DNA of 64,000 nt, taken from assembly GCA_951406725.2 (NCBI GenBank), contig OX597815.1:52824001-52888000 (forward strand). The letters run 5' to 3'. Each line of letters opens with the position of its first letter. The stretch's first letter is position 1. The notes under the pieces were generated by a model that did no database searches, was not told where the DNA came from, and saw nothing but the letters and a program-made list of their open reading frames with translations. Shown one piece after another: positions 10,174 to 61,978 of the stretch. Source of the DNA: Octopus vulgaris. Taxonomy: Eukaryota. The translations under genes and the position numbers were made by a program.

Positions 10174-10279
<106 letters not shown>

Positions 10280-10327
10280 AGTGAATTGAAGAAATGGAGT
10301 TGAACGAAGATTGAACAGAAATCGTTT

Positions 10328-10420
10328 TATTGCATTCTACACGTGTTTCGAAAGGCACAATTTACCAAATTCCGATTAAATAAGGAGACCATATTGTGTC
10401 TTTCTCTTCAGGAAGAAATA
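10328..10420 (-). ncRNA. Type I minimal HHR with palindromic stem III (CACGTG) in the PLE 3' end
   Basis: Minus strand: TATTTCTTC-CTGAAGA-GAAAGACACAAT..ATTGTGCCTTTC-GAAA-CACGTG-TA^-GAATGCAATA, overlapping AATAAA. Confidence 0.85.
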
Positions 10421-11007
10421 GGAAATCCGTTGGAAAAAACAAAAACAGAACAGAGGCGGAGCAAAACAAATCGAACGAGGCTCCTAAGAGCCCATGGCCA
10501 AACTGTTTATCAATGTATGTTGAAAACTGGTGGCGGGTGCGTTGAAGGTTTTAACGGGTCAGGCAGCGGTCATTCCTGTGGGTGGTAGCACAGGGTGCTT
10601 AGATGTTCTTTGTGACCGAGACTAAAGTTCTGACTATTTAAAGAATATTAGGTGTATTATATGGGGCGAGGCAAAATCTACTTAGAAACATGTGTGTGTG
10701 TGCTGTTCTATGTGTTCGTATGTGCGTTTGATCACGTGGCCGTCAGTTGGTAAACAGCCCTGCACAATGGTCACTGCTATAAAATCCGTCGGGTGGCAGA
10801 AAAAAATTTTTTTATGTGTGCGTGTGTTCGTCTAAGCCTGCCTTGTCAAAGAAACCCCCCGTCGTCAAGACAAACCCCATTCGTCTCCCAGGAGTAATTC
10901 CCCTTGCAATGGTTAATCATATTTCTCATAAAAGTTATTCAGAATTTATTTCCAAGGGCTATTTTCATATAAGTAGTGTAACCGGGTGCAGGTATTATTT
11001 ATAAGCG

Positions 11008-13260
11008 TTATTTATAAGCAAGATAAGTATAACGCCGCCAGTGGGGGCATCGAAAAGCCGACTGTAAAAGCCCGTTTACTATCCGGTCTCTGGCGAACAA
11101 TATATGGAAGAGTTCGGAGACACAAAGGTTGCACTTCCTTCTGCCCCTGTCAAATGGGGGGCCACCGACAAAATTGACCATTCCAGGCTGTAGCTTGAGT
11201 TCGTATTCTTCAATCGCCATATTAGCTTGCTGAGTCCCGTGGTCTGGCATTTATTCACGTCTCGAAAAGTTGCGTAATGGTTGGAGATCCGTGAGGACAA
11301 TCTTGACGATGAGGCCCCGACATAAGAGTAGACATCTGAGTCCGTGTAAACCTTACATTGGTAGACGGCGTTTCTGATCTTGGAGTTCACCGACGTGAAC
11401 CTTATTCTATTAGGATTAGTTTCTGAAATTAGAACTGCGTTACTGTTACTATATTTGTTGCGAGAACTGCAGCCGCTTACTACTTTAATTTCCACTACGT
11501 CACTATTACCTAACGGAATAACACCTGATTCTACACTATCACTCAGAGTGCTGTCATTGCTAGTGCCCGTGGTGCTGCTATTGCCGGAAACGATGCTGGA
11601 GTTGATATTGGGACTCTCTACCCCAACGAGTGAGCTGCGCTCACCTCACTACTGCCATCGTTACCGTCAATGACATCACCCTTATTTATAACTATACCCC
11701 TAGTATATAATCCCTGGTTGGAGCTGAGATTATGAGTCACTGTACTGGCTCTCATATCATTATTACTACTATTATTATTCCTACTGGGCGTTAAACCGGG
11801 AGCGGAAGAAGCTGTGCCTCCGGATAAAGGTGGTAGGGTCTTGGTAAGCAGCCTATTATTATGGGAGGCGACTATCTGGGCGAGGTTTTTAGTGTTGGAG
11901 AAAGCTATCCTAACTTTATGCGAATTAACCGTGGAGTAATATTTGGAATTTCTGGGGAAGTTATTGGCGATGGCTTGTCGAAACATGAGGGGAGGTTAGT
12001 TCTAATCTGCTTACCAAAGGGAATTACAAACCATATATGCTTGTTCCTATTTATGTGATGGGTCGGGACGCCAGCTCTCGCATTCGGGTGGGTGATTCTC
12101 GGATGAATAACGGGTTTTGGGTTAGTGTGAGATCCCCCGGACCGATAATTATCCTTGTTCGCTAAATTAAATGCGGGAGCGACTGCCCCAGCACCCGCCG
12201 CGCTCCCGTCACTACTTAAATTATTAATGTTATTATAGACGGCCCTATCCTGATGACCGAATGATGGCATCGGAAGGGCCGGATCAATATAAATTACCTT
12301 CTGCCTATAACCGGCCTTGGATAGTGCGGCGTTATAAAATTCCGCTTTCTGCATAAAAATATCGGCACTAGCGGACAAGCCAGACAATCTTAGAGAGATG
12401 TTTTTAACCAAATTGTCTGTTACGGTTTTGGCATGATTGGAGAAGACACTGACATACTTCAAATTAGTGGAAGGCTTATGGTAAGGGCAGTATGAGTCGC
12501 TATTAAGGTTAAGTGTAACGTCTAGGAAATTTGCCTTGGTGAGTTCATTATCAAAAACTATATTCATGCCCATTCTATTAAAAAACCTAGCTAACCTGCT
12601 CTTAGTTTTCTGCACTATTCTGTTCGTGGTGTTTTGCAGGTAAAACAGACAATCGTCACGATACAGGCCGCCCGCGATCTCCGGGAATGGTCGGACAATT
12701 CATAGAGAATATATATTCCGACCAAATCGGCTATCTGCGCACTATCCGAACTACCCATAGGCACATCAAATTCATTGGGAGTATCTTTACGGATCCACAA
12801 CTTATTATCAAACTTAATAAACGATTTCCTGGCAACTAAAATGATATCTATTTCTTCTCTGGTGAGGCCAGCCTTGTTGTGAGCATGCCAAAGGGCCTTA
12901 TTTAGTACACTAGGGTTAATCGAGGGGTAGAAGCTGGCGATATCAAACTGGATGAACCTAGTACGGTTCTTATTGGGGATGGAAGAGAACCACTTCACTA
13001 CCTGCGAGGAGTTGGCCCAGAGGCTGAGCTTCAGTTTGTTTACTAAACTAGGGATATATTTATCTAAAATGTACTTACTGATTATCCCGATATCAGAGCT
13101 AGCAGGGCATATGAGTCTTAGCGCTGGGTTGGTGTGGAAGTTCGGTTTATGGTCCTTCACTATGAATCTAGGTTGCTTAGGGCTAAGCGGCTGCGTTCTC
13201 ATTTGAATTCCGTGTTTCAACATTTTTTCCTTAATTTCCAAGTTTACCTTCCTCAGGGTA
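11008..13260 (-). pseudogene. Naiad-type PLE reverse transcriptase/GIY-YIG endonuclease (about 4 frameshifts)
   Basis: KDHKPNF..NP.LRLICP, FIQFDIASFYPSI, FDVPMGS.DSAQIADLVG, GLYRDD (~12660, shifted frame), NFLDVTLNL, SNH; EN: NAVYQC..YVGA..R..NH..F..LSKLIW.LK..W.IL, CNLCVSE, CPH. Confidence 0.92.
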
Positions 13261-13266
13261 ATAAAT

Positions 13267-13346
<80 letters not shown>

Positions 13347-36938: not shown

Positions 36939-37100
36939 AAAAAAAACAGTTTAACTCAGCCCCATGCAGCATAAAGTTTCGTAGGCTCGGCATAGAACCT
37001 AGCTCCTCAGGCTCGTCGATCACCTGAGCCAGATAACCTAGGATCCTGTGCCGAGTCTGCGAAACTACGTTTTATGACACCGAAACAAACTGTTTTTTAA
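36939..37100. mobile_element. ~160 bp palindromic MITE-like element
   Basis: AAAAAACAGTTT..AAACTGTTTTTT ends; AGTTTCGTAGGCTCGGCATAG pairs with CTGTGCCGAGTCTGCGAAACT; inner CTCAGG..CCTGAG. Confidence 0.7.
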
Positions 37101-47854: not shown

Positions 47855-48649
47855 ACAGACTGGAATTGTAGGCCCGTCTCTTGCAATTTCGATCAATTGT
47901 ATCTTGTCCTCCTTGTATAGAAGTGTAACTACAATCCAGTCTACCTCTACCTCTGGGGAGACATTTTAAATTTTTATCTGGGACGTCCTACGTCCCAGAT
48001 ATAAAGGTAAAAATAAAATATTTCCACTTTGCAAGGTTCGAGTCAAGTACTCCCTTGCACGCTCCGTTGACTCGAACCTTGCTTCTATTGTGGCGAATTT
48101 ACTGTCTCTGGTTAGATATCTTTCATAGTCGCACCAAGACACTTTTCGAAGGTGCTTTCCTCCAGGTGTTCAAATCTTTTTTTTTCTCTACATTGTATAC
48201 TTTATAGACAATAGTCTTTTCTTTAATTTAATTTTTTATTTCGTTTGGTGGTGTTATCCTAGATTCACCGTCTTTGTTAGTGATCAATCCGAAATAGGTT
48301 TGTATTTCTTCCATTTTAATTTTAATGAGTTCGCGCCCGCCGACGGCTGCAGCGAAATTCATTTTTGGACTTTCTTCTATCGAAGACATTTTAATAAAAA
48401 TGCTTCCGTATAAACGGTGAAAATATTGTCAATTTCTCCAAACAGGGACACAATTCAATTTTTAAACAATAGCCAAAGCTCCTTCTCCCAAAGGGGGAGG
48501 GTTACGGTTTACAATTATTTAACAAATGCGACACAACAACGTTTCCCTTACAAGGAACCAACAAACGTGATAACAATAGTTAAACAGTAATAATAATAAC
48601 AACAAAACTTACGGTGAATCAAAAAGCAGTACTCAGTAGAAGCGGCTGT
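47855..48649 (-). mobile_element. 5' UTR + ORF1 fragment of an L1/Tx1-type element (element B)
   Basis: Reads MSSIEESPKMNFAAAVGG..KTIVYKVYNV..FATIEARF..PLYLGRRTSQIKI*NVSPEVEVDWI, similar to ORF1 at 52650-53360 (KFAEVAG..RRIIYKTYNV). Confidence 0.75.
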
Positions 48650-48801
48650 AATTTTTTATTACCCACAAGGGGCGAACAAAGAGGAGACACCACAATCTGA
48701 TTTGGGGTCAGATTTACGAATGATTTTACATAGATGATGATCAATATTTAAATTACAAAGCGGGAAATAGTTGTCAAAGTGGATTGTTACATAATTACGA
48801 A

Positions 48802-51800
48802 TCACAATAAAATCGAAAAAATCGGATGATGGGACAGACCGGAAGACATTACGGATGGAGTGGGGGGGGGGGGGGGGTAACTCGGACCCCACGTGCCCCG
48901 CCTCGCCACTGATACCTTGGTTTCATTCTGTCTCACATTTATGTGGTACCATTCATACGCAACATCTGTGCTACATTCTTCCGTCGTTTTTCGAACTTTC
49001 TCAGTCAGGCATTTTCTCTCCAGCCCTCTTTTCTTTTTCAGGTGGAAGATGGAGTAATTCATCAATCCAGGGCTAGAGATAAAATTGCCTGACTCTATAC
49101 CTTTCAGCCTCGTCTTCCAAATCACCTCTCTCGCAATTGCAACTACAACGAGAAAACAATTCTTACCTTCTTTCGAGAGAAAATCCGGTGGGTCAATTTT
49201 TACAATAGACTCAGTCGACAGCTGTACTCTTCGTGTGTTTGACAACAGTTGTTCGGCATAAACCCACATCTCTGACACCTCCGAACATTGAGCAATAGCA
49301 TGCGGGACGGTTTCCCTATCCCGCTCGCATCTTGGATATGTCGGATTGCCTCGGCCACCATGCCTTGTGAGTTTGTCCCGAACAAGTAGAGCTCCTCTGT
49401 AACATTGCCATGCCAGAAACTTCTGAAAGTTGTCCAGGGTCTTCGGCCCGCATGTACGTCGGAACAGACTGGCCAGCTGATTATCATCGAGACCTAGGGT
49501 CTCCCCTAAAGTATCGTCACATTCCGCCTCTACCAGCCCTCTATAAAAGAATGTGGTGGAACCCCCACCGCAGGCGTTGCCCGAGCGACGGAATAGCAGG
49601 AGAGCCTTGCGACACTCCGTAAACCATGTGCCCAGTTTTGATCTTCGATTCAACTAGGTTTCCCATCCACCGAAACTACTGAACTTGGGAAACATCAGTT
49701 TTGCCAGCAGAAACCACACCCGTTCACCATCCAGGTAGAGCCACAGATGCCTCAACCTCAGCGCATGTCTCCGCATCAACAGCCAAGGCAGCCCTAGCCC
49801 ACCCTTTAACGGTTTTTTGACAGCAAGTAGAGCGTTTCACAAGCGGTTTCGAGCTCCTCCACAAAAAGTGAAAGAGCTGTCTTTCCAGGTTGATCAACCA
49901 CGAATCAGGGCAAGGAACGACGGATAGGCGGTAGGTGATGACCAATGCGATGAACACATTGGCTACATCCGCCCTTCCTTTCAGGGATAGCCACCGCCAA
50001 GACCAGGTGTTGACTACTGGAGCCACCCTGCTCGATACCTCGGCCCAGTTCTTCTCTATTTGGAGGTCTGGTCCAAACCAAACCCCTAGCAACTTAATCG
50101 GACCCTCCGTCCAACGTCTCACGACACTGTCAGGAGGCATCGACTTGCCTCTTCAGGTGCCGAGCTGCAAGCCGACTGACTTTTCATGATTAACTTTTGC
50201 TCCTGCCACCGTCTCGTAAACCTCTATGGCCTTGCCTACCCTCTGTAGGTGATCCATTTCGGTTACGATGATGGTGATGTCATCCGCGTAAGCTGACACC
50301 GGTTTTCCACAACCTGGCTGTCTCGGGATGCCGCTCAATTTTCGCAGTAATGGCTCAAGAGCCATCACGTACAAAAGCGGGGAGAGCGGACACCCTTGAC
50401 GAACCGAGCGTTTGATGTTGAACGGCTTCGATAAGAAGTCGTTCACCCGAACTACCGAGTCGATGTTGTCGTAAATCTGAATGATCCACCTGAGGAAACC
50501 AAGACCCAGGCCGAACTGTGCCAGAACGGACACCAGGTAGCGATAGTCAACCCTATCAAAAGCCTTAGATTGGTCTAAATGGACCAGTGCCCCACCCTTG
50601 CCAGAATCACTATTAAACCCCTCTAAAGTGTACCGCATAAGATGGACATTATCCTGAATGGTTCTGCTGGGAACGGCACATGTCTGTTCCTCCCCGATCA
50701 GACCATCCGCGACACGCGCCAATCTTTTCGACAACACTTTGGCCAAAATCTTCAACTCTGTGTTTAGCAGAGTGATGGGCCGAAAATTATCAATACAATC
50801 CCCCTTGTCCAGGTCCTTTCTGACAAGCGTCACTACTCCCCGGCGCACAGATCTGGGAATAAACCCGTTCAGCTGCCAGTTCGCGTACACCTCCGCCAGT
50901 AGGTGCCCGAACAAGTCTGGCATACTCTTATATAACTCATAGGGTAGTCTTACCTGCGCCTTACCTGCGCCGCAACCCGCCATAGCCTCAGCCACCTCCT
51001 CAGGCATGATCGGCCCTTCAAAGCTCTCCCGCGTCTCGCCCCGATAGGCGCGGCAGCCCGTCGAGGAGGTCCGTAAAGTCCCTCCTACTATCTGTTCCAC
51101 CGCCCCACCGAAAAGCTGAGCGAAGTGCTCCTGAAAAGCCTCACACATCTTCTCGGGTTCGTCTATCAACTTACCTTGTTGGTTCGTCAAAGATCGAATT
51201 GTGACATCATTACCACGTTGAGCATCCACCACTCGGGCCCATCCTGCAGCGTTGATTCCCTCACAACCCACTACGCGGATCCTAGCCCTGACAATGCAGC
51301 CCATGTGTTTGGCCTCGAGGTGCTGGTTTAACGCCAGTCTCTTGGCCGTCACCTGAGCCGTAGAGCCAGTTTTCATGGCTTTCTAAGTCCTTAACTAGAG
51401 TTGATCCCCTCCTAGCCTCTCTAGCCACTAATCCTATGCTATATCTAATAAACTCGAATTTTATGGCTCGCTTGAGAGCATACCACCATTTATTATTAAT
51501 GATGGCATCAGATAGCTCCCTCTGAATCAAAGTCCTAATCCGGTCTCTGTACTCCTTAATCGCCAAAAGAGACGTATTAAGTTTCCAAGCTTACAGGTGA
51601 CCATTTTATGGTCACTGTAGCTGACCGGGTAAAACTGTGGACACTTAGCTATTTCTCTATCTGTTTTTCTAATTAGTATTCTATCTATGTAAGACCTGGA
51701 AGATCCGTCGCTATTTGACCATGTCCACAATGGAGCGTTCGGAAAATCCAACCTATAAGGATCTGCTAGCTCAAAGCGTCTTAGCAGTTCCAGGAAGCCA

Positions 51801-52291
51801 GGGTTACCCTTTCTATCTGTACACGAGCCAACATAATCTACTCTCGCTCGTAAATTGTGTTGTAGTCTCCTAGCACAACTAATGAATGTGAAGTATTAAG
51901 AAACTTCTCTAGCTCTCGAAAATACTCACTTTGCCCAGATGATGATGAGGGTGCATAAATTGCAACCAGTCTGATAACTTTACCGTTTCTGAACGTCAAA
52001 TCCATGACGACCAGCCTACCTTCTGGATCTGAAAAAATTAATTGTTTCTCAAAAACCCGGTTTCTTTTTAATAGGACCAACACTCCACTCCTGCTGGTAG
52101 GACTGCCTGGAGAGAAAAAAACTCTCGTAGCTTTTCAACAGCGGGAGCAGATCTCTTGGCTCCTCTAACCGGGTTTCTGTAGCAACAATAACATCCAAAT
52201 TCCGCGACCTGATATCATTAAGGAAGCGTCCTTGCTTCCAGCTTGATCTCAGGTCACACACATTTATACAACCGACATAAATGCTAGCCAT
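48802..52291 (-). pseudogene. Tx1 ORF2 (AP endonuclease + RT + C-terminal zinc motif), disrupted
   Basis: CINV, ETR, AIYAP, LGDYN, SYIDRI, SDH; FRPITLLN, LDQSKAFDRV, SVRQGCPLSPLLY, AYADD, LLGVWF; degenerate C..C..E...H...C. Confidence 0.93.
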
Positions 52292-52304
52292 AACTTACGT
52301 CATA

Positions 52305-53361
52305 TCAGTGGTTCGGCTCATCTTCGTCTTTTTCTTTTTTATCTTTTTCCCGGGCCCGTGGCGGATTTTGACACAGCCCCTCGTATATGTATGGTGAGAT
52401 ACCCATCCTTAGAGGGCCTACGTCGTGATAAAATTCGGACTTTATCCGTCCGTAATCCTTCCGGCCTATTCTATATATTACAAAGTCTTTTGATGTGGTT
52501 TTGTCCACTTTTTAACCGTTGACATTGCTGCCAACCGATTCATGAGTCTATTATTAGATGCCCTAATGACCATAAACGTATTGACACACTTCTGCTTCCT
52601 TTTCAGGTTCAATTTGTGAGGGGTGGTCTCTGTTTTTTGCTTTTCCTCATTTTCTTGGAAATCGTTGACCACCCCTCCTCTTTTTCATTTTCTTCGCATT
52701 TTTCCTTCTCTGGTGTTTCTTTGGTCTTGATGCTTCTTTGGGTGATGTTTCTGGTGATTCATTCGGTGTTGTCTCTGGCGATTCATTCGGTGTTGACTCT
52801 GATGATTCTTTTGTTTCTGGTGGTGATGTTTCTTGAGGTTTTTCCTTTGGCTGGCATTCTGCTCTTATATGCCCCTTCATGCCACAGCTGAAGCATCTTG
52901 GCTTCTTGCCCTCCACAAAGACTATTAGTTTTTCTTCTTCGCTGATTCTTATGACCTCTGGAATTTCTTCCAGGGTTTGAACTTCGGCTTGTATAGCCAT
53001 TGTTAGGCATTGGCCCTTCCAGTGCTCCTCTTCCTCTACCGAAGCCTGGAGAATATTTATCTTTTCGTCTAATACCAACGTTATACGTCTTGTAAATGAT
53101 TCTCCTTTTGTTAACTACCTCGGTTGTGTTCTCGTTCGATATTACTATGACTTCCGTGCCTTCTTTCTTCAAGTTTGACATATATTTTTCCAGGTTACTC
53201 TTTTCGATATTTAGCTTTCTCTCTTTCTTCCCTGCCACTTCAGCAAATTTCTTCGTTGGGGCTGCATTCGTTTTAGGCGATACCGTCGGTGAGTTTTCTT
53301 CACCTGACACAGGTGAGTATGGAATGGGAGTTTCCATTTCCACAAAGTTGGCTTTCAACAA
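52305..53361 (-). pseudogene. Tx1 ORF1 (gag-like, CCHC knuckle), disrupted
   Basis: VFVEGKKPRCFSCGMKGHIRAEC. Frameshifts and an apparent internal deletion relative to element B. Confidence 0.8.
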
Positions 53362-53959
53362 GCAAAAAGTTTTGGCTTAAACAATCCTTTCACGAAAATT
53401 CGTTTAAACAAGCTTTTCCCCAAAATTGGCTAAACAAGCCTTTCGCACAAGTTTGCTTTACAACTACACAATAATTCCCCCCGCAGGGAGGAATTTCAAC
53501 ACGTAGCTTTCAAACGAAAGCAAATAACAAGTTTTTCACAACAAAATTTACAGTAACAACAACAAATCAACGTACCGATAGCAGAATTTCAAACAACAGA
53601 GTAGAAGCGGCTGTTCGAGACAACAGACATTACATACAGCCAAACTTCATATAGATACTTAATGCTAGCTAATTAGCAGATAATCTAATGTAAAAGCTGT
53701 GGTAAATGGTATGTGCACAGCTCCATCTGGACTATTCCATTTCTGCACATTAATATTATTTTTAATTTATTCCCATTCATGTGAAACCACTTATTCAAGT
53801 TCAAGTCATTGATGCAATTTTATACCAATTGCTATTTTTACTTTTAATTGTTATGTTACGATTTAATTATTATATTATACATTAGTTTGATTTTAATTAT
53901 TACTTACTACATATAATTCAATTGTTATTATTATCTCTAATTTTTATTGTTAAAGTGAA

Positions 53960-54203
53960 AGTATCTGACATAAAATAGAGAAATGTTTTTGTTTCACTTT
54001 TCACACGTAATACTGAAATAGTGGAGAAGATATGATATTGCTATGGGCTCGCCCTAGGCAAGAAGTTGAATATTTTTTTGCCCATGAAACTACATGGACC
54101 CTAAGTAAGGCATGTGTAAAATTTGAATGAAATTGGTTGTGTAGTTCTCGAGTTTTAGGGAAACACACAGACAGACAGACATTCTCAGTTTTATATATAG
54201 AGA
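53960..54203 (+). mobile_element. 3' end of a non-autonomous Helitron-type element (5' end possibly at 47698)
   Basis: Ends AAATTGGTTGTGTAGTT..ACAGACAGACATTCTCAGTTTTATATATAG. A matching-type start ACTAGCATTATGACTCGGCGTTGCCGGGTC lies at 47698. Confidence 0.55.
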
Positions 54204-54351
54204 GATAATAGTGGTAGAACAATGCACCCATATTTATTGAAGATTGCAGTCGACGCTATAGTAAAGCTCCACTGTATGTATATACTGGCAAAGATATGTG
54301 AGGGCGGCAGACATAAAAGATTCCACCTTACCTGTAGGAAAAACATTTGAT

Positions 54352-54429
54352 AAATCTAGGACCTAGGTTTCGAACTCTTCAAAATATGTTTATTAATGTA
54401 AATTTGATTAGTTCTCCGCAGCTACATTC
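54352..54429 (-). ncRNA. Minimal HHR, copy 1 (core mutated to CTGCGGA)
   Basis: GAATGTAG-CTGCGGA-GAACT..AGTTC-GAAA-CCTAGG-TC^-CTAGATTT. Confidence 0.75.
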
Positions 54430-54788
54430 ACCAAGACAAAATTTCAAATGTTGCTACATCAGTGCCAGTATATTTGCCTGGACTCCTAGCCGTTAACAAA
54501 ACTGAGAACAGTGAAAAGGTTTTCAAAGAAAAATATTATTAAATAGTGCAATACTATAGTATTGCTTTCCAGTAAAATAAAGCACCATATGGTTAAAGCA
54601 TAAATATAGAATAGTGGTACAACAATACACCAATATTTACTAGAAATAGCAGTCGATAATATATTCTACGGTATAGTAAAGCTTCACTGTATATATATAC
54701 TGGCAAAGATGTGTAAGAGTAGCGAACATAAAAAGTTTCATATTACCCGTAGCAAGAACATTAGATAAATGTACAACCTAAATGTGGA

Positions 54789-54866
54789 GAATCTAAGACC
54801 TAGGTTTTGAACTCTTCAAAATACGCTTGTTAAGGTAAAATTGATTAGTTCTCTTCAGCTAGATTC
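54789..54866 (-). ncRNA. Minimal HHR, copy 2 (GAAA mutated to AAAA)
   Basis: GAATCTAG-CTGAAGA-GAACT..AGTTC-AAAA-CCTAGG-TC^-TTAGATTC. Confidence 0.78.
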
Positions 54867-54902
54867 ATCAAGACAAAATTTTATATGCTGCTACATCATT
54901 GC

Positions 54903-54942
<40 letters not shown>

Positions 54943-55006
54943 CCATATGATTACATATGATAAACATGTAATCATATGGCTATTTATATTTGTGTGTAAA
55001 TGTATT

Positions 55007-55484: not shown

Positions 55485-56748
55485 TTTGGTAAGTTTGGAT
55501 ACGCACTATGTATGGTCCCTCATTTTGTAGATAATTATATTGATTAGTTCATCGAGAACAGTCCTTATTACTTTTGGTTTATATTAATGATTTCTATCGA
55601 TTCACTAAATTCTCCCTTCCATAATATAACAATCATTATTTTAAGTAACTTCAAATCTGGTTAACCCCCCCAAAAATTAGTAAATTTGATTTCCATTACT
55701 ATAGCCTAAATATATATATATATCTATGGGGTACTTTGATCATCGCATTTACAGCGTTAAGTTTATATTAATGTTTATTACGGAATTCTCCCTACGATAA
55801 ATTAAGTAAACAAGGAAAATTTATATTAGGTTTCTATTCATATTTACTACAGAATTTTCCCTCCGAGAAAGCAATAAATATAGATTATTATTACTTAATT
55901 TAGGCAATAATTTGTTTATATCAATTAATTTAAATAAACGGAAGAGTTGTATTGAAGATGTAATTGTTTAGATATTTTTTTGTTGCAGTTATACATAGGG
56001 GAAGACTTAGATACTTGATTATATACATATATATTTATACACACATATTTTGTTGTATGTTGTGGTAACGAGGGACTGTCTTGGACATGGAAAAGTTTCG
56101 ATTGGTATGTGTTTGAGATGTAATGAAGTGAAATTCGTTGGTTGTGGATTGCACTTACTTGGTTGTATCGTCCGTTAGAGTGTTTTTGTCGTTTTTTAAT
56201 TGTAATTGATGTGTGATTGAATAGTTAACGCTCACGACGTTCATAATGCATAGACATTTGAATTAACTTTTACAATCCAACAGTCTATCTTTAAACCATG
56301 GCCCTGAAGTAACTTATATATAAGAGAGCTGTATGTATATCAGAAAATTCATATAAGTCGAAACAATTTGTTGGCCTTTATGTTTTTTTAATAATTGTTT
56401 ATGTTATGTTATATTTATCGTATATCATATATTATTATAATATAATTAAATTATTAGATTGTCAATAGTATCTCTTTATTTGATTTATCTTTGTAAGTGC
56501 ATTATACTCATATTTTTATGGTAATCAACTGACATACCAATGGATTGGATGTTTAATACGCATCTGTGAAAGATCTCTTTTCCTCGGGGTCGTTCTTTAT
56601 GTTTGGTAAGTTTGGATACGCACTATGTATGGTCCCTCATTTTGTAAATAACTATATTGATTAGTTCATCGAGAACAGTCCTTATTACTTTTGGTTTATA
56701 TTAATGATTTCTATCGATTCACTAAATTCTCCCTTCCATAATATAACA
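55485..56748 (+). mobile_element. Terminally redundant non-coding unit (1117 bp period, 147 bp direct repeat) with an HHR relic
   Basis: 55485-55631 is nearly identical to 56602-56748. HHR-like GGCC-CTGAAGT-AACTTATAT..ATATAAGTC-GAAA-CAATTTG-TT-GGCC at 56300-56376. Confidence 0.7.
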
Positions 56749-57523
56749 GTGTCTTTCGTTGTTCAAAAGAATAGTTCATGTTCCATGTACTCGTGGTTCG
56801 TAATTTTTTGTTGTATACGTTTCGTGACGTCCCGTGCCAACATATGCACATATATATATATACACATACATATATACATTATGTATATTATTATATGACT
56901 GAACGCTATGCACCCTCTTCCAAGTAAGTTTTATCATAATAATTCTGATGCACACCCTATACAATCATTTTACTCTTTCGTTTTTCTCTCTTTCTCACTC
57001 TCTCTCTTATTCTCTTACCTCCTCTTCTCCCTCTATTCTTTCCTATTACTCTGTCGCTCTCTCATCCTCACTCCTTTTCCCTTGTTCAAGTGGTTCCCAC
57101 GTGACCAACGACCATCTTTCTTCTAACTTGTGTTTCTTTCTTTCTCTCCGTTGTAGCTGGAATAAGGAAGACGTGTTCTTGTTTGTCTCCTGTCCAAGCT
57201 TCATTTACGCGTTCGCCACCGCAACCACGTTTAGACTTAGCAGCGCTTCCTGTTTGTTTTTACTGTCTTGTTTTACCAATTTTGACCCTCCATAAAATTC
57301 CACATTTTCTTTAATTTGCTTTGCGGGAGCAACTGTTTTATCGAAAGCGCATATTGTTGTTAAATGCTCGAAATACGAGACTAGAAAAACAGCCAACAGC
57401 TGATGAAAGGTCGATCTTTATGTTGTTTGTTTTGTTTTCCATTTGTGTCTTTAGTTGTTTGAAAGAATAGTTCATGTTCCATGTACTCGTGCTTTGTATT
57501 TTTTTGTTGTACACGTTTCGTGC
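56749..57523 (+). mobile_element. Terminally redundant non-coding unit (~696 bp period), same family as 63590-64000
   Basis: 56749-56826 is repeated at 57445-57522. 57230-57500 aligns with the reverse complement of 63650-63960. Confidence 0.65.
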
Positions 57524-57817: not shown

Positions 57818-58164
57818 GTATGTATGTATATGTATGTATGTGTATATATATATACATATATAGGTCGTCCATCGCTAATTCAGCAACCACTAATCTGGCT
57901 CCATCCTTAATCAAATTTCAACTGACCTAATTTTAACCTCAAATTTACCAACTTACCGCATCAACCTGCTTTTAATGTTTGTTGGTGCTACTTGTTTTAT
58001 ATGCACCATTATCTGTATTAATTACAAAAAGGGGCAAGGTTTTCAAATTTGTTTTGTCCCATTTATTATTGCAACTTCTTCCTTTCTAGCCTCAGCTATG
58101 ATTCCCTTAAATAAAATAAGGCTTCTTGTTGAGTATAAATATCGGACATTGTCTATTAAAACTA

Positions 58165-59056
58165 TCGTGCTGAGTCAAACGTTTTGCCATATTTTGCTAA
58201 CTTGTTTTCTTTATTTGTCAACTTAAAACAAAAGCAGCGTAGTATTCAAAGTAGAGGCCGTTGTCTTGCACTATCTGTAACCACTTTTCTGTCGGTTCTT
58301 TGATCCCACGTTGATACTAGTTATTATCCTTCGAGGCGAATAAATCCTTTACTGAAGCTTCCTCCTCTGCTTCGTTGATGAAGCTTCGTTAGCGCTCAAA
58401 GTGAGACATGAATTGGAACATATAATAATCCGAGGGAGATAATTTTCCGCAATCCTAACATACATAAGCAGTAGTTAAGCGAGGGCCAGCTTCTGGAACC
58501 TGTAGCTAAAAATGGGCGTTTCGAACATAAGGTAATGCTCCGGGTCTGGTGGAATTATTATGGAACAATTCACTACGAAATCGTTCCGAACCATCGATGC
58601 AAACCTGTGCTCCGAACGGCTGGAGTGGATGCGGCTAAAATGTCCGGCATTAGTTAACAGAAAGCGAGCTGTTCTGCAGCAAGGTAACACAAGACCTCAA
58701 TACCGCTTGACCGACTAGGCATAAACTTTCGGAACATGAGAGAATTGGACTGATGCTACACCCAGCTTATAGTCCGGACCTAACACCCTCAGTTTATCAC
58801 TCGTTCCTATCCATGGCTCAGTTTCTGCGCTCGTGTCGCTTCATCAACCAAGACGAGGTAGAAGTTTCAGTGAAGGCGTTCTTCACCCCAAAATACGAGA
58901 ACGGGTATCAGTATGAAATCAAAGAACAGACAGAAACTGGCTTCAGACACTGCAACACGTTGGCTTCTACTTCGAATGCTTGGCTGCTTTTGTTTTAAAT
59001 TGACAAATAAAGCAATTAATTTACCAAGATATAACAAAACTTTTGACTCAACACAA
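58165..59056. mobile_element. Mariner derivative built from two inverted 3' ends
   Basis: TA-flanked TIR-like ends (TCGTGCTGAGTCAAACGTTTTG / CAAAACTTTTGACTCAACACAA). Transposase C-terminus on + (HPAYSPDLTPSVYHSFLSM) and again on - at ~58230-58440. Confidence 0.8.
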
Positions 59057-59209
59057 TAACGTTGAACGTTTGAAGAAATACTTGACAACAGTGTATCAGT
59101 AAACAGTGTGAGGAAGTTGTACAGAATTAGCTTTTCCATAATTTATGACATTAAGAAACAGACCTGAAGCACCTAATTTTCTTTGTTTGTTTCTTCCTTC
59201 TGACAGTAA

Positions 59210-60931: not shown

Positions 60932-61105
60932 ATAAATATTAGGGAATAAATCCAAATTTACAGGGAAAAAATCAGATTTAAGATTAAATCCAATTTTATA
61001 GTAAAATATTATATAATATTATTAGAGACAAAACCACTATTTTGCAAAACAAACAAGGAAAGACTTAATCAATACATAAAATTTTAATAAAAAGTCAAAA
61101 AAACC

Positions 61106-61151
61106 GCCACTACAATTGTTTCTTGTCTTGATCGACAATCTTCAGGTGGGC
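61106..61151 (-). ncRNA. Intact minimal HHR (stem III CAATTG)
   Basis: Reverse complement of 61542-61587. Confidence 0.88.
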
Positions 61152-61541
61152 TTCCAATCCCTGTGTAGAATTTACATCTCAAATAAAGCCGTCCATAACG
61201 ATAAGATGTGACCAACATATAAAAAAGCTTAGCCAGGGTTCACGGGTAGACAGACACCTTGCGAAACGAATATTCCTTTCTTTTTCTTTTTTTTTAATTA
61301 ATTCATTTGATACGTTTAAATTCTTTTGGTAAGTTTACTTTATATAAACATATTAAGAATTCCGTTTAATGTCTCTCAATGATGTATACAGGGTATATAT
61401 ATTTATGTGGCTTTAACTAAACTTCATTTAAAAAGCCTGCCGATTAGTGCGCACGCCTTCCATTCTGTACGGATAGCAACTCGATCCCTTATCGTTATGG
61501 ACGGCTTTATTTGAGATGTAAATTCTACACAGGGATTGGAA

Positions 61542-61587
61542 GCCCACCTGAAGATTGTCGATCAAGACAAGAAACAATTGTAGTGGC
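61542..61587 (+). ncRNA. Intact minimal HHR (stem III CAATTG)
   Basis: CCAC-CTGAAGA-TTGTC-GATCAA-GACAA-GAAA-CAATTG-TA^-GTGG. Confidence 0.9.
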
Positions 61588-61671
61588 GGTTTTTTTGACT
61601 TTTTATTAAAATTTTATGTATTGATTAAGTCTTTCCTTGTTTGTTTTGCAAAATAGTGGTTTTGTCTCTAA

Positions 61672-61725
<54 letters not shown>

Positions 61726-61803
61726 GGGTTTAGCTCACTTCTGATCTAAACGAATAACACTTACGCTGAGTAAGTGTTATATTTGGTCGACCATTAGGTT
61801 CCA

Positions 61804-61867
61804 AGAATCCTAACACGGATCCCTAGATCTAGCTAAAGCTAGATCTAGGGATCCGTGTTAGGATTCT
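61804..61867. repeat. Perfect 31 bp-arm palindrome (2 nt spacer)
   Basis: AGAATCCTAACACGGATCCCTAGATCTAGCT-AA-AGCTAGATCTAGGGATCCGTGTTAGGATTCT. Confidence 0.95.
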
Positions 61868-61978
61868 GTTATACCATGCATATATTATATTAGAGGAAAA
61901 ATCAAACTTGAGATACTCGTTCTGACTTGATTCTGGTTTTTCTTCTAATATTTATATATATATATACATATATATATA

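Follow-up and report, generated by a model that had tools for sequence, protein, structure and literature searches.

Metazoan non-LTR retrozymes have been described with repeat units of 220–245 nt in corals, 350–390 nt in mussels and 330 or 350 nt in the axolotl (PMC7229834). Weak palindromic helices III of the kind found in such hammerheads are described as working as double hammerheads (PMC4209133; PMC7229834), and the same feature occurs at the ends of Penelope elements, so that a palindromic helix III does not separate the two kinds of element (PMC4209133). A search of the literature, in which subscription papers were weakly covered and supplements not included, returned no description of cephalopod retrozymes, and the main text of a 2026 octopus repeat annotation does not contain the words ribozyme, hammerhead or retrozyme (PMC13282606); the non-LTR retrozyme class may be undescribed in cephalopods. 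Here we analyse a 64-kb stretch of Octopus vulgaris DNA (the window) containing an insertion that is probably an aged and mutated copy, 1.7 units long, of a non-coding hammerhead repeat family with many members and a 437-nt unit. The family is likely a non-LTR retrozyme that relied on Penelope-like enzymes for its copying. By itself the locus means little, adding one more family, by way of a dead copy, to a known class of animal elements. How the RNA of retrozymes returns to DNA is a question that such families could settle.

Layout of the insertion and its hammerhead motifs

The window is AT-rich and crowded with microsatellites and transposon remnants. The insertion (positions 54207–54905, minus strand) is 699 nt long, non-coding and 33% G+C. 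In RNA order it consists of a 5′-truncated upstream unit, A′ (54905–54610, here copy 2), a segment B (54609–54474), which is single at this locus yet part of the family unit, and a downstream copy, A (54473–54207, here copy 1), amounting to about 1.7 units of a 437-nt repeat once 34 deleted bases are added back. The alignment of the homologous blocks 54207–54468 and 54610–54905 spans 262 bases and shows 43 substitutions (16.4%), including 29 transitions; copy 1 lacks two segments of 12 and 22 nt that are present in copy 2. Owing to these two gaps, the copy-to-copy offset takes the values 403, 415 and 437, whereas the predicted cut sites, after 54797 and after 54360, are spaced by 437 nt and delimit a monomer at 54360–54796 (minus strand). 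The first-pass annotation had proposed tandem units of ~403 bp. Tandem homologous blocks are indeed present, but 403 is the offset at the left end only, and the A′-B-A array falls short of two full units. The window contains no additional copy of the unit. With a length of 437 nt, a G+C content of 33% and no stop-free stretch longer than 59 aa anywhere in the insertion, the unit lies within the range of the non-coding units of non-LTR retrozymes (~150–450 nt, G+C below 50%).

Each copy carries one type I hammerhead on the minus strand, and both have the RF00163 layout of three helices around CUGANGA, GAAA and UH with an open helix I, with one core mismatch each. The hammerhead of copy 2 (54790–54866; core 54858–54797, cut after 54797) has an intact CUGAAGA, a helix II of 5 bp around a 33-nt insert and a palindromic helix III, and carries the substitution G12A at 54808. 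That of copy 1 (54353–54429; core 54421–54360, cut after 54360) has an intact GAAA and a palindromic helix III, together with an additional G-G mismatch in helix I. Its core reads CUGCGGA and, position 7 being free in the hammerhead consensus (PMC7151607), the lesion is A6C, at 54418. In a search of 801 nt, Rfam Hammerhead_1 matched both motifs on the minus strand, at 54791–54864 (28.7 bits, E = 7.8e-5) and 54354–54427 (22.2 bits, E = 0.011). Both matches fall below the gathering score of 34, and a search at that score gave no match anywhere in the window. A descriptor tolerating a single core mismatch matched the 64 kb at these two sites and nowhere else, compared with a mean of 0.017 matches in 60 block shuffles, none of them with a palindromic helix III. 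The two hammerheads announced by the first-pass annotation are thus corroborated by descriptor, Rfam and shuffles, but the elements it regarded as lost, CTGAAGA in copy 1 and GAAA in copy 2, each carry a lesion of a single base.

Neither copy retains an intact catalytic core. The G12A substitution is reported to slow a full-length hammerhead about a million-fold (PMC2553840), and A6C, in one tested ribozyme, lowered the rate in Mg2+ from 0.3 to 3.6e-6 per min with activity kept in Mn2+ (PMC7151607). Both ribozymes at the locus are predicted to be dead.

The window has several other features. A LINE with RVT_1 and zf-RVT domains (48635–53614, minus strand), bounded by a 15-nt direct repeat (48635–48649 and 53600–53614), lies ~250 nt upstream of the start of a decayed ORF1-like frame (48392–48000), possibly at the start of that element. 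An imperfect fold-back at 36975–37066 contains a CUGAGGA...GAAA motif on the minus strand and is possibly a decayed hammerhead pair. Long imperfect inverted arms, 71–79% complementary, at 58163–59058 perhaps represent an old inverted-repeat element, and a near-perfect hairpin with ~33-nt arms at 61803–61870 is unrelated to the unit. Two direct duplications (55485–55631 and 56602–56748, 147 nt, 99%; 56749–56826 and 57445–57522, 78 nt, 91%) contain no hammerhead detectable by the descriptor.

Decay and predicted folding of the two cores

The two copies differ at 2 of 12 core positions, 2 of 30 helix bases and 39 of 220 positions outside the ribozyme, and the core therefore shows no protection relative to the remainder. 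For the structured part as a whole, the difference (4 of 42 versus 39 of 220) is not significant (P = 0.11), and the locus gives no significant evidence that its ribozyme is under selection. At the observed divergence, the chance that both cores are hit is 0.33–0.41, and the hits would nearly always fall on different bases. Since core and flanks are hit equally often and a hit in both cores has this chance, the different lesions need no special cause; judged from the sequences, their ‘complementary’ character is a product of neutral decay. The first-pass annotation had treated the different lesions as noteworthy, a significance that does not survive this expectation, nor do the lesions complement each other in the predicted fold.

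Folding was addressed with constrained nearest-neighbour models of the natural locus sequence, which leave tertiary contacts aside. The favoured structure, with a share of ~0.8, is a double hammerhead in which helices I and III form between the copies and helix II is local to copy 2. This fold uses the G12A core, which is why the locus is predicted to be dead. The two monomer folds cost 9 to 18 kcal/mol more. These models suggest a double hammerhead as the working form of the intact ancestor.

A transcript of the locus might in principle still cut once, at site 1, if the intact 5′ half of copy 2 paired with the intact 3′ half of copy 1 over ~470 nt to form a split ribozyme. The order of the lesions does permit such a nested fold, and the helix I that it needs, in which the 5′ strand comes from copy 2 and the 3′ strand from copy 1, pairs with a probability of 0.995; the long-range helix II that it equally requires, however, has a probability of 0.0, and the complementing fold lies 11 kcal/mol above the ensemble, with a share of ~2e-8 versus ~0.8 for the double hammerhead with the G12A core. 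Moreover, a single cut would free no monomer. On these folding models we reject cis-complementation of the two lesions, and we regard a working split ribozyme as extremely improbable.

The 437-nt monomer folds weakly better than its shuffles (z = −1.86, with 4 of 100 shuffles as good), and 59% of its bases are paired when it is folded as a circle. Retrozyme circles are described as highly self-paired, so the weak fold speaks against a retrozyme, though with low weight since the copy is decayed.

The repeat family in public contigs and the ends of the insertion

Part of the stretch is contained in 20 of 24 listed public runs, mostly as small shares, with none recorded as RNA. Contigs of four runs (organisms A, A, B and C) were aligned at 80% likeness, and the family is known from these contigs, not from genome positions. 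Contigs from all four runs cover the unit in all bins, and each listed site of the unit has its variant letter in 9 to 104 contigs per run. Judging from these contigs, the family is multi-copy, with many diverged relatives; scattered relatives, on which the first-pass reading depended, are seen in contigs of all four runs.

The variant rows listed (40 of 210) include 23 in A or A′, and for 20 of them the other copy offers a base for comparison. At 17 of the 20 comparable sites, A6 included, the family majority is the base of the other copy, the remainder comprising one site at which both copies differ alike and two at which all three differ. The majority restores A6 and both helix I mismatches. 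G12 is absent among the variant rows listed, and the family base at that position is for this reason taken from copy 1. The agreement supports the earlier proposal that merging the two copies approximates the ancestor. The 8-bp stem I put forward with it, by comparison, combines bases from both copies: at 54789 the family majority has another base, leaving seven Watson–Crick pairs, and helix I of the family is probably 7 bp long.

Of more than 27,000 pieces, those listed in the unit number 29 (26 distinct), after leaving out three on the neighbouring repeat; the four runs are not independent, some pieces recurring between them. When crossing is defined as at least 31 nt on each side of a border, the junction at 54610 is crossed by 10 of the 29 pieces listed (9 distinct, 2 of them from organism C), the border at 54473 by 9 (8 distinct) and cut site 2 by 8 (7 distinct). 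Because pieces cross both 54610 and 54473, segment B is a regular part of the family unit, and copies other than this one, themselves diverged, contain the head-to-tail junction. No array of more than two units was seen among the contig pieces of the four runs, which are short. A local DNA-level duplication of a single insertion, or a simple satellite whose hammerhead was never of consequence, is hard to reconcile with nine distinct diverged pieces crossing 54610 among those listed, two of them from organism C, and with a family majority that restores A6 and both helix I mismatches; we consider it improbable, even if the array of only 1.7 units and the lack of apparent core selection at the locus would suit it.

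Three further observations concern the contigs. Several joints that ‘go back’ or ‘skip’ by ~411–418 nt merely switch between matching places of the two copies and were discarded as tandem evidence. Loose ends at 54419 in two runs belong to contigs that match upstream of the hammerhead and then continue into a CUGAUGA core with a different helix II, which identifies a sister family. Exact 22-nt and 18-nt patterns had no match in metagenome and viral contigs; a loose hammerhead pattern had 1 viral and 29 metagenome matches, which were rejected, as none of the 30 matched the unit by blastn (E = 1e-3) and none had helices I and II in register.

Copy 1 ends at the position equivalent to 54610. Across 54603, summed depth, which is no measure of copy number, rises in each of the four runs (1.9-, 3.1-, 5.8- and 12-fold), and the ends of 11 of the 29 listed pieces fall within 54581–54620. 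Together these positions hint that the family has a fixed 3′ end, located ~187 nt beyond the cut site, although the depth step may, at least in part, mark where a more abundant sister family with a different helix II stops matching. At its 5′ end the insertion adjoins a (TA)n run (54906–54938), the likely target. At its 3′ end it adjoins an unrelated repeat of very high copy number (53900–54206, left border provisional), which lies outside the element and whose other copies often continue into (TA)n there (loose ends at 54207). No target-site duplication, 30–40-nt tail or inverted arm was identified at the locus; elsewhere in the family, an opposite-strand joint was seen in one contig per run in three runs. 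Of a Penelope-type footprint, the partial tandem and the (TA)n flank are seen at the locus, and the fixed 3′ end is hinted at by the depth step and the piece ends.

The neighbouring repeat at 53900–54206 reaches a summed depth of ~2 million in the runs of organisms A and B (a single exact contig gives 26), is nearly absent left of ~53970 from the run of organism C, and has joints indicating an internal 144-nt tandem unit in other copies. From its end motifs we take it to be Helitron-like. A small perfect fold-back (54940–54980), with 16-nt arms and a 9-nt loop, lies immediately to the right of the element and is flanked by two (TA)n runs.

Origin of the insertion and comparison with known systems

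Two other insertions in the window are relevant to the question of which machinery copied the element. The first (10276–13260, minus strand) is a 5′-truncated, frameshifted element with a reverse transcriptase-like frame (atlas matches 0.91–0.94), flanked by (AT)n on both sides and carrying, ~60 nt before its end (~10411–10338), a hammerhead-like motif with a long loop II and a palindromic helix III. A downstream stretch is, by its motifs, presumably GIY-YIG-like, and Pfam and PDB sequence searches gave no name to the protein at 11079–13271. The second (60940–61673) is a fold-back insertion between (AT)n runs, with 193-nt perfect inverted arms (61013–61205 and 61488–61680), each containing an intact type I hammerhead (61145–61111, minus strand, and 61548–61582, plus strand), and has the appearance of a young Penelope-type stub accompanied by an inverted copy. 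Both layouts are of Penelope type (compare 10.1101/2021.04.23.441226) and, as with the 437-nt element, both insertions sit in TA-rich microsatellites, here (AT)n. The unit shares no sequence with either of them, and tblastn of the window’s Penelope-type protein pieces against the unit gave no match.

The insertion could itself be a gutted Penelope element, with A′ and A as its pLTRs and B as a remnant of its body, the RNA being linear in partial tandems and never a stable 437-nt circle. Partial tandems, 5′ truncation and (TA)n targets are all Penelope traits (10.1101/2021.04.23.441226), and the locus is shaped exactly so; the ribozyme-like motif that ends the window’s Penelope-type element also shares the long loop II and the palindromic helix III, and retrozymes are reported to be related to pLTRs in Xenopus, in a study in which only one of nine tested dimers cleaved (10.64898/2026.07.22.740005). 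By contrast, B and A contain no coding remnant (no frame longer than 59 aa and no tblastn match), a reverse transcriptase and GIY-YIG frame between pLTRs, as in an autonomous Penelope-like element, is absent from the insertion, and a helix I of 7 bp with a helix II of 5 bp is closer to the canonical hammerhead than to the minimal pLTR form, described with 4–5 bp in helix I and 7–8 bp in helix II (PMC4209133). Any deletion would also have to be family-wide, both borders of B being crossed by other copies. On balance, we view this alternative as rather unlikely while the most serious of those considered, and the two readings lie on a continuum.

Under our preferred reading, a retrozyme mobilized by Penelope-type enzymes, intact members of the family would be transcribed as multimers that cut themselves into 437-nt monomers, probably as double hammerheads through the palindromic helix III, and a host ligase would circularize the monomers, as has been demonstrated in coral, mussel and axolotl. 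The reverse transcriptase of a Penelope-type element, together with the endonuclease, would then have primed at the (TA)n run, with copying started at a point ~187 nt downstream of the cut site and ended after ~1.7 units. In doing so the enzyme would have read through two intact cut sites, for which reason the template would have been a circle or an uncut multimer. The two copies would subsequently have decayed independently, by ~9% each, with one chance hit per core. We infer the Penelope-like mobiliser from context and from the literature. Counting against this reading are the lack of arrays above two units among the contig pieces, the weak fold of the monomer, the lack of a sequence link to a particular Penelope element and a footprint that at this locus does not go beyond the (TA)n flank. 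A bolder and more tentative version, which we think possible but would not bet on, holds that the family still has intact members producing 437-nt circular RNA in the cephalopod and that the locus records ~1.7 laps of a Penelope-type reverse transcriptase around such a circle, begun at a fixed point 187 nt beyond the cut site. If the circle reading were true, copies of the family would make the rolling-circle retrotransposition of retrozymes directly readable.

The architecture of non-LTR retrozymes invoked by the first-pass annotation is recovered in the non-coding hammerhead repeat and its family-wide head-to-tail junction, while the palindromic helix III that it cited is shared with Penelope ends. 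The locus resembles the pLTR hammerheads of endonuclease-bearing Penelope-like elements (PMC4209133; 10.1101/2021.04.23.441226) in its type I motif, a weak palindromic helix III that needs a partner, the partial tandem, the 5′ truncation and the microsatellite flank; unlike them, it has no ORF between the repeats, a longer helix I and no recognised inverted arm or tail. With the vertebrate non-LTR retrozymes that derive from Penelope pLTRs (10.64898/2026.07.22.740005) it has in common short arrays, derivatives of a monomer and co-occurring Penelope-like elements. In contrast to those, no matching pLTR was found in the window and, both cores being mismatched, the locus lacks the complete hammerhead in two consecutive units by which that study defines an ‘active’ retrozyme, and is by this rule classed from its sequence as an inactive derivative. 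Compared by architecture, on DNA only, with the metazoan non-LTR retrozymes (PMC7229834), the locus stands apart in its 437-nt unit with a 33-nt insert in helix II and in the mutation of both cores. It shares with them a non-coding unit of a few hundred nucleotides, a G+C content below 50%, one type I hammerhead per unit, the head-to-tail arrangement and the presence of many copies. It also resembles the axolotl motif HHR_Amex2 and invertebrate motifs, in which, as here, helix III consists of two pairs with a palindromic tetraloop (PMC7229834).
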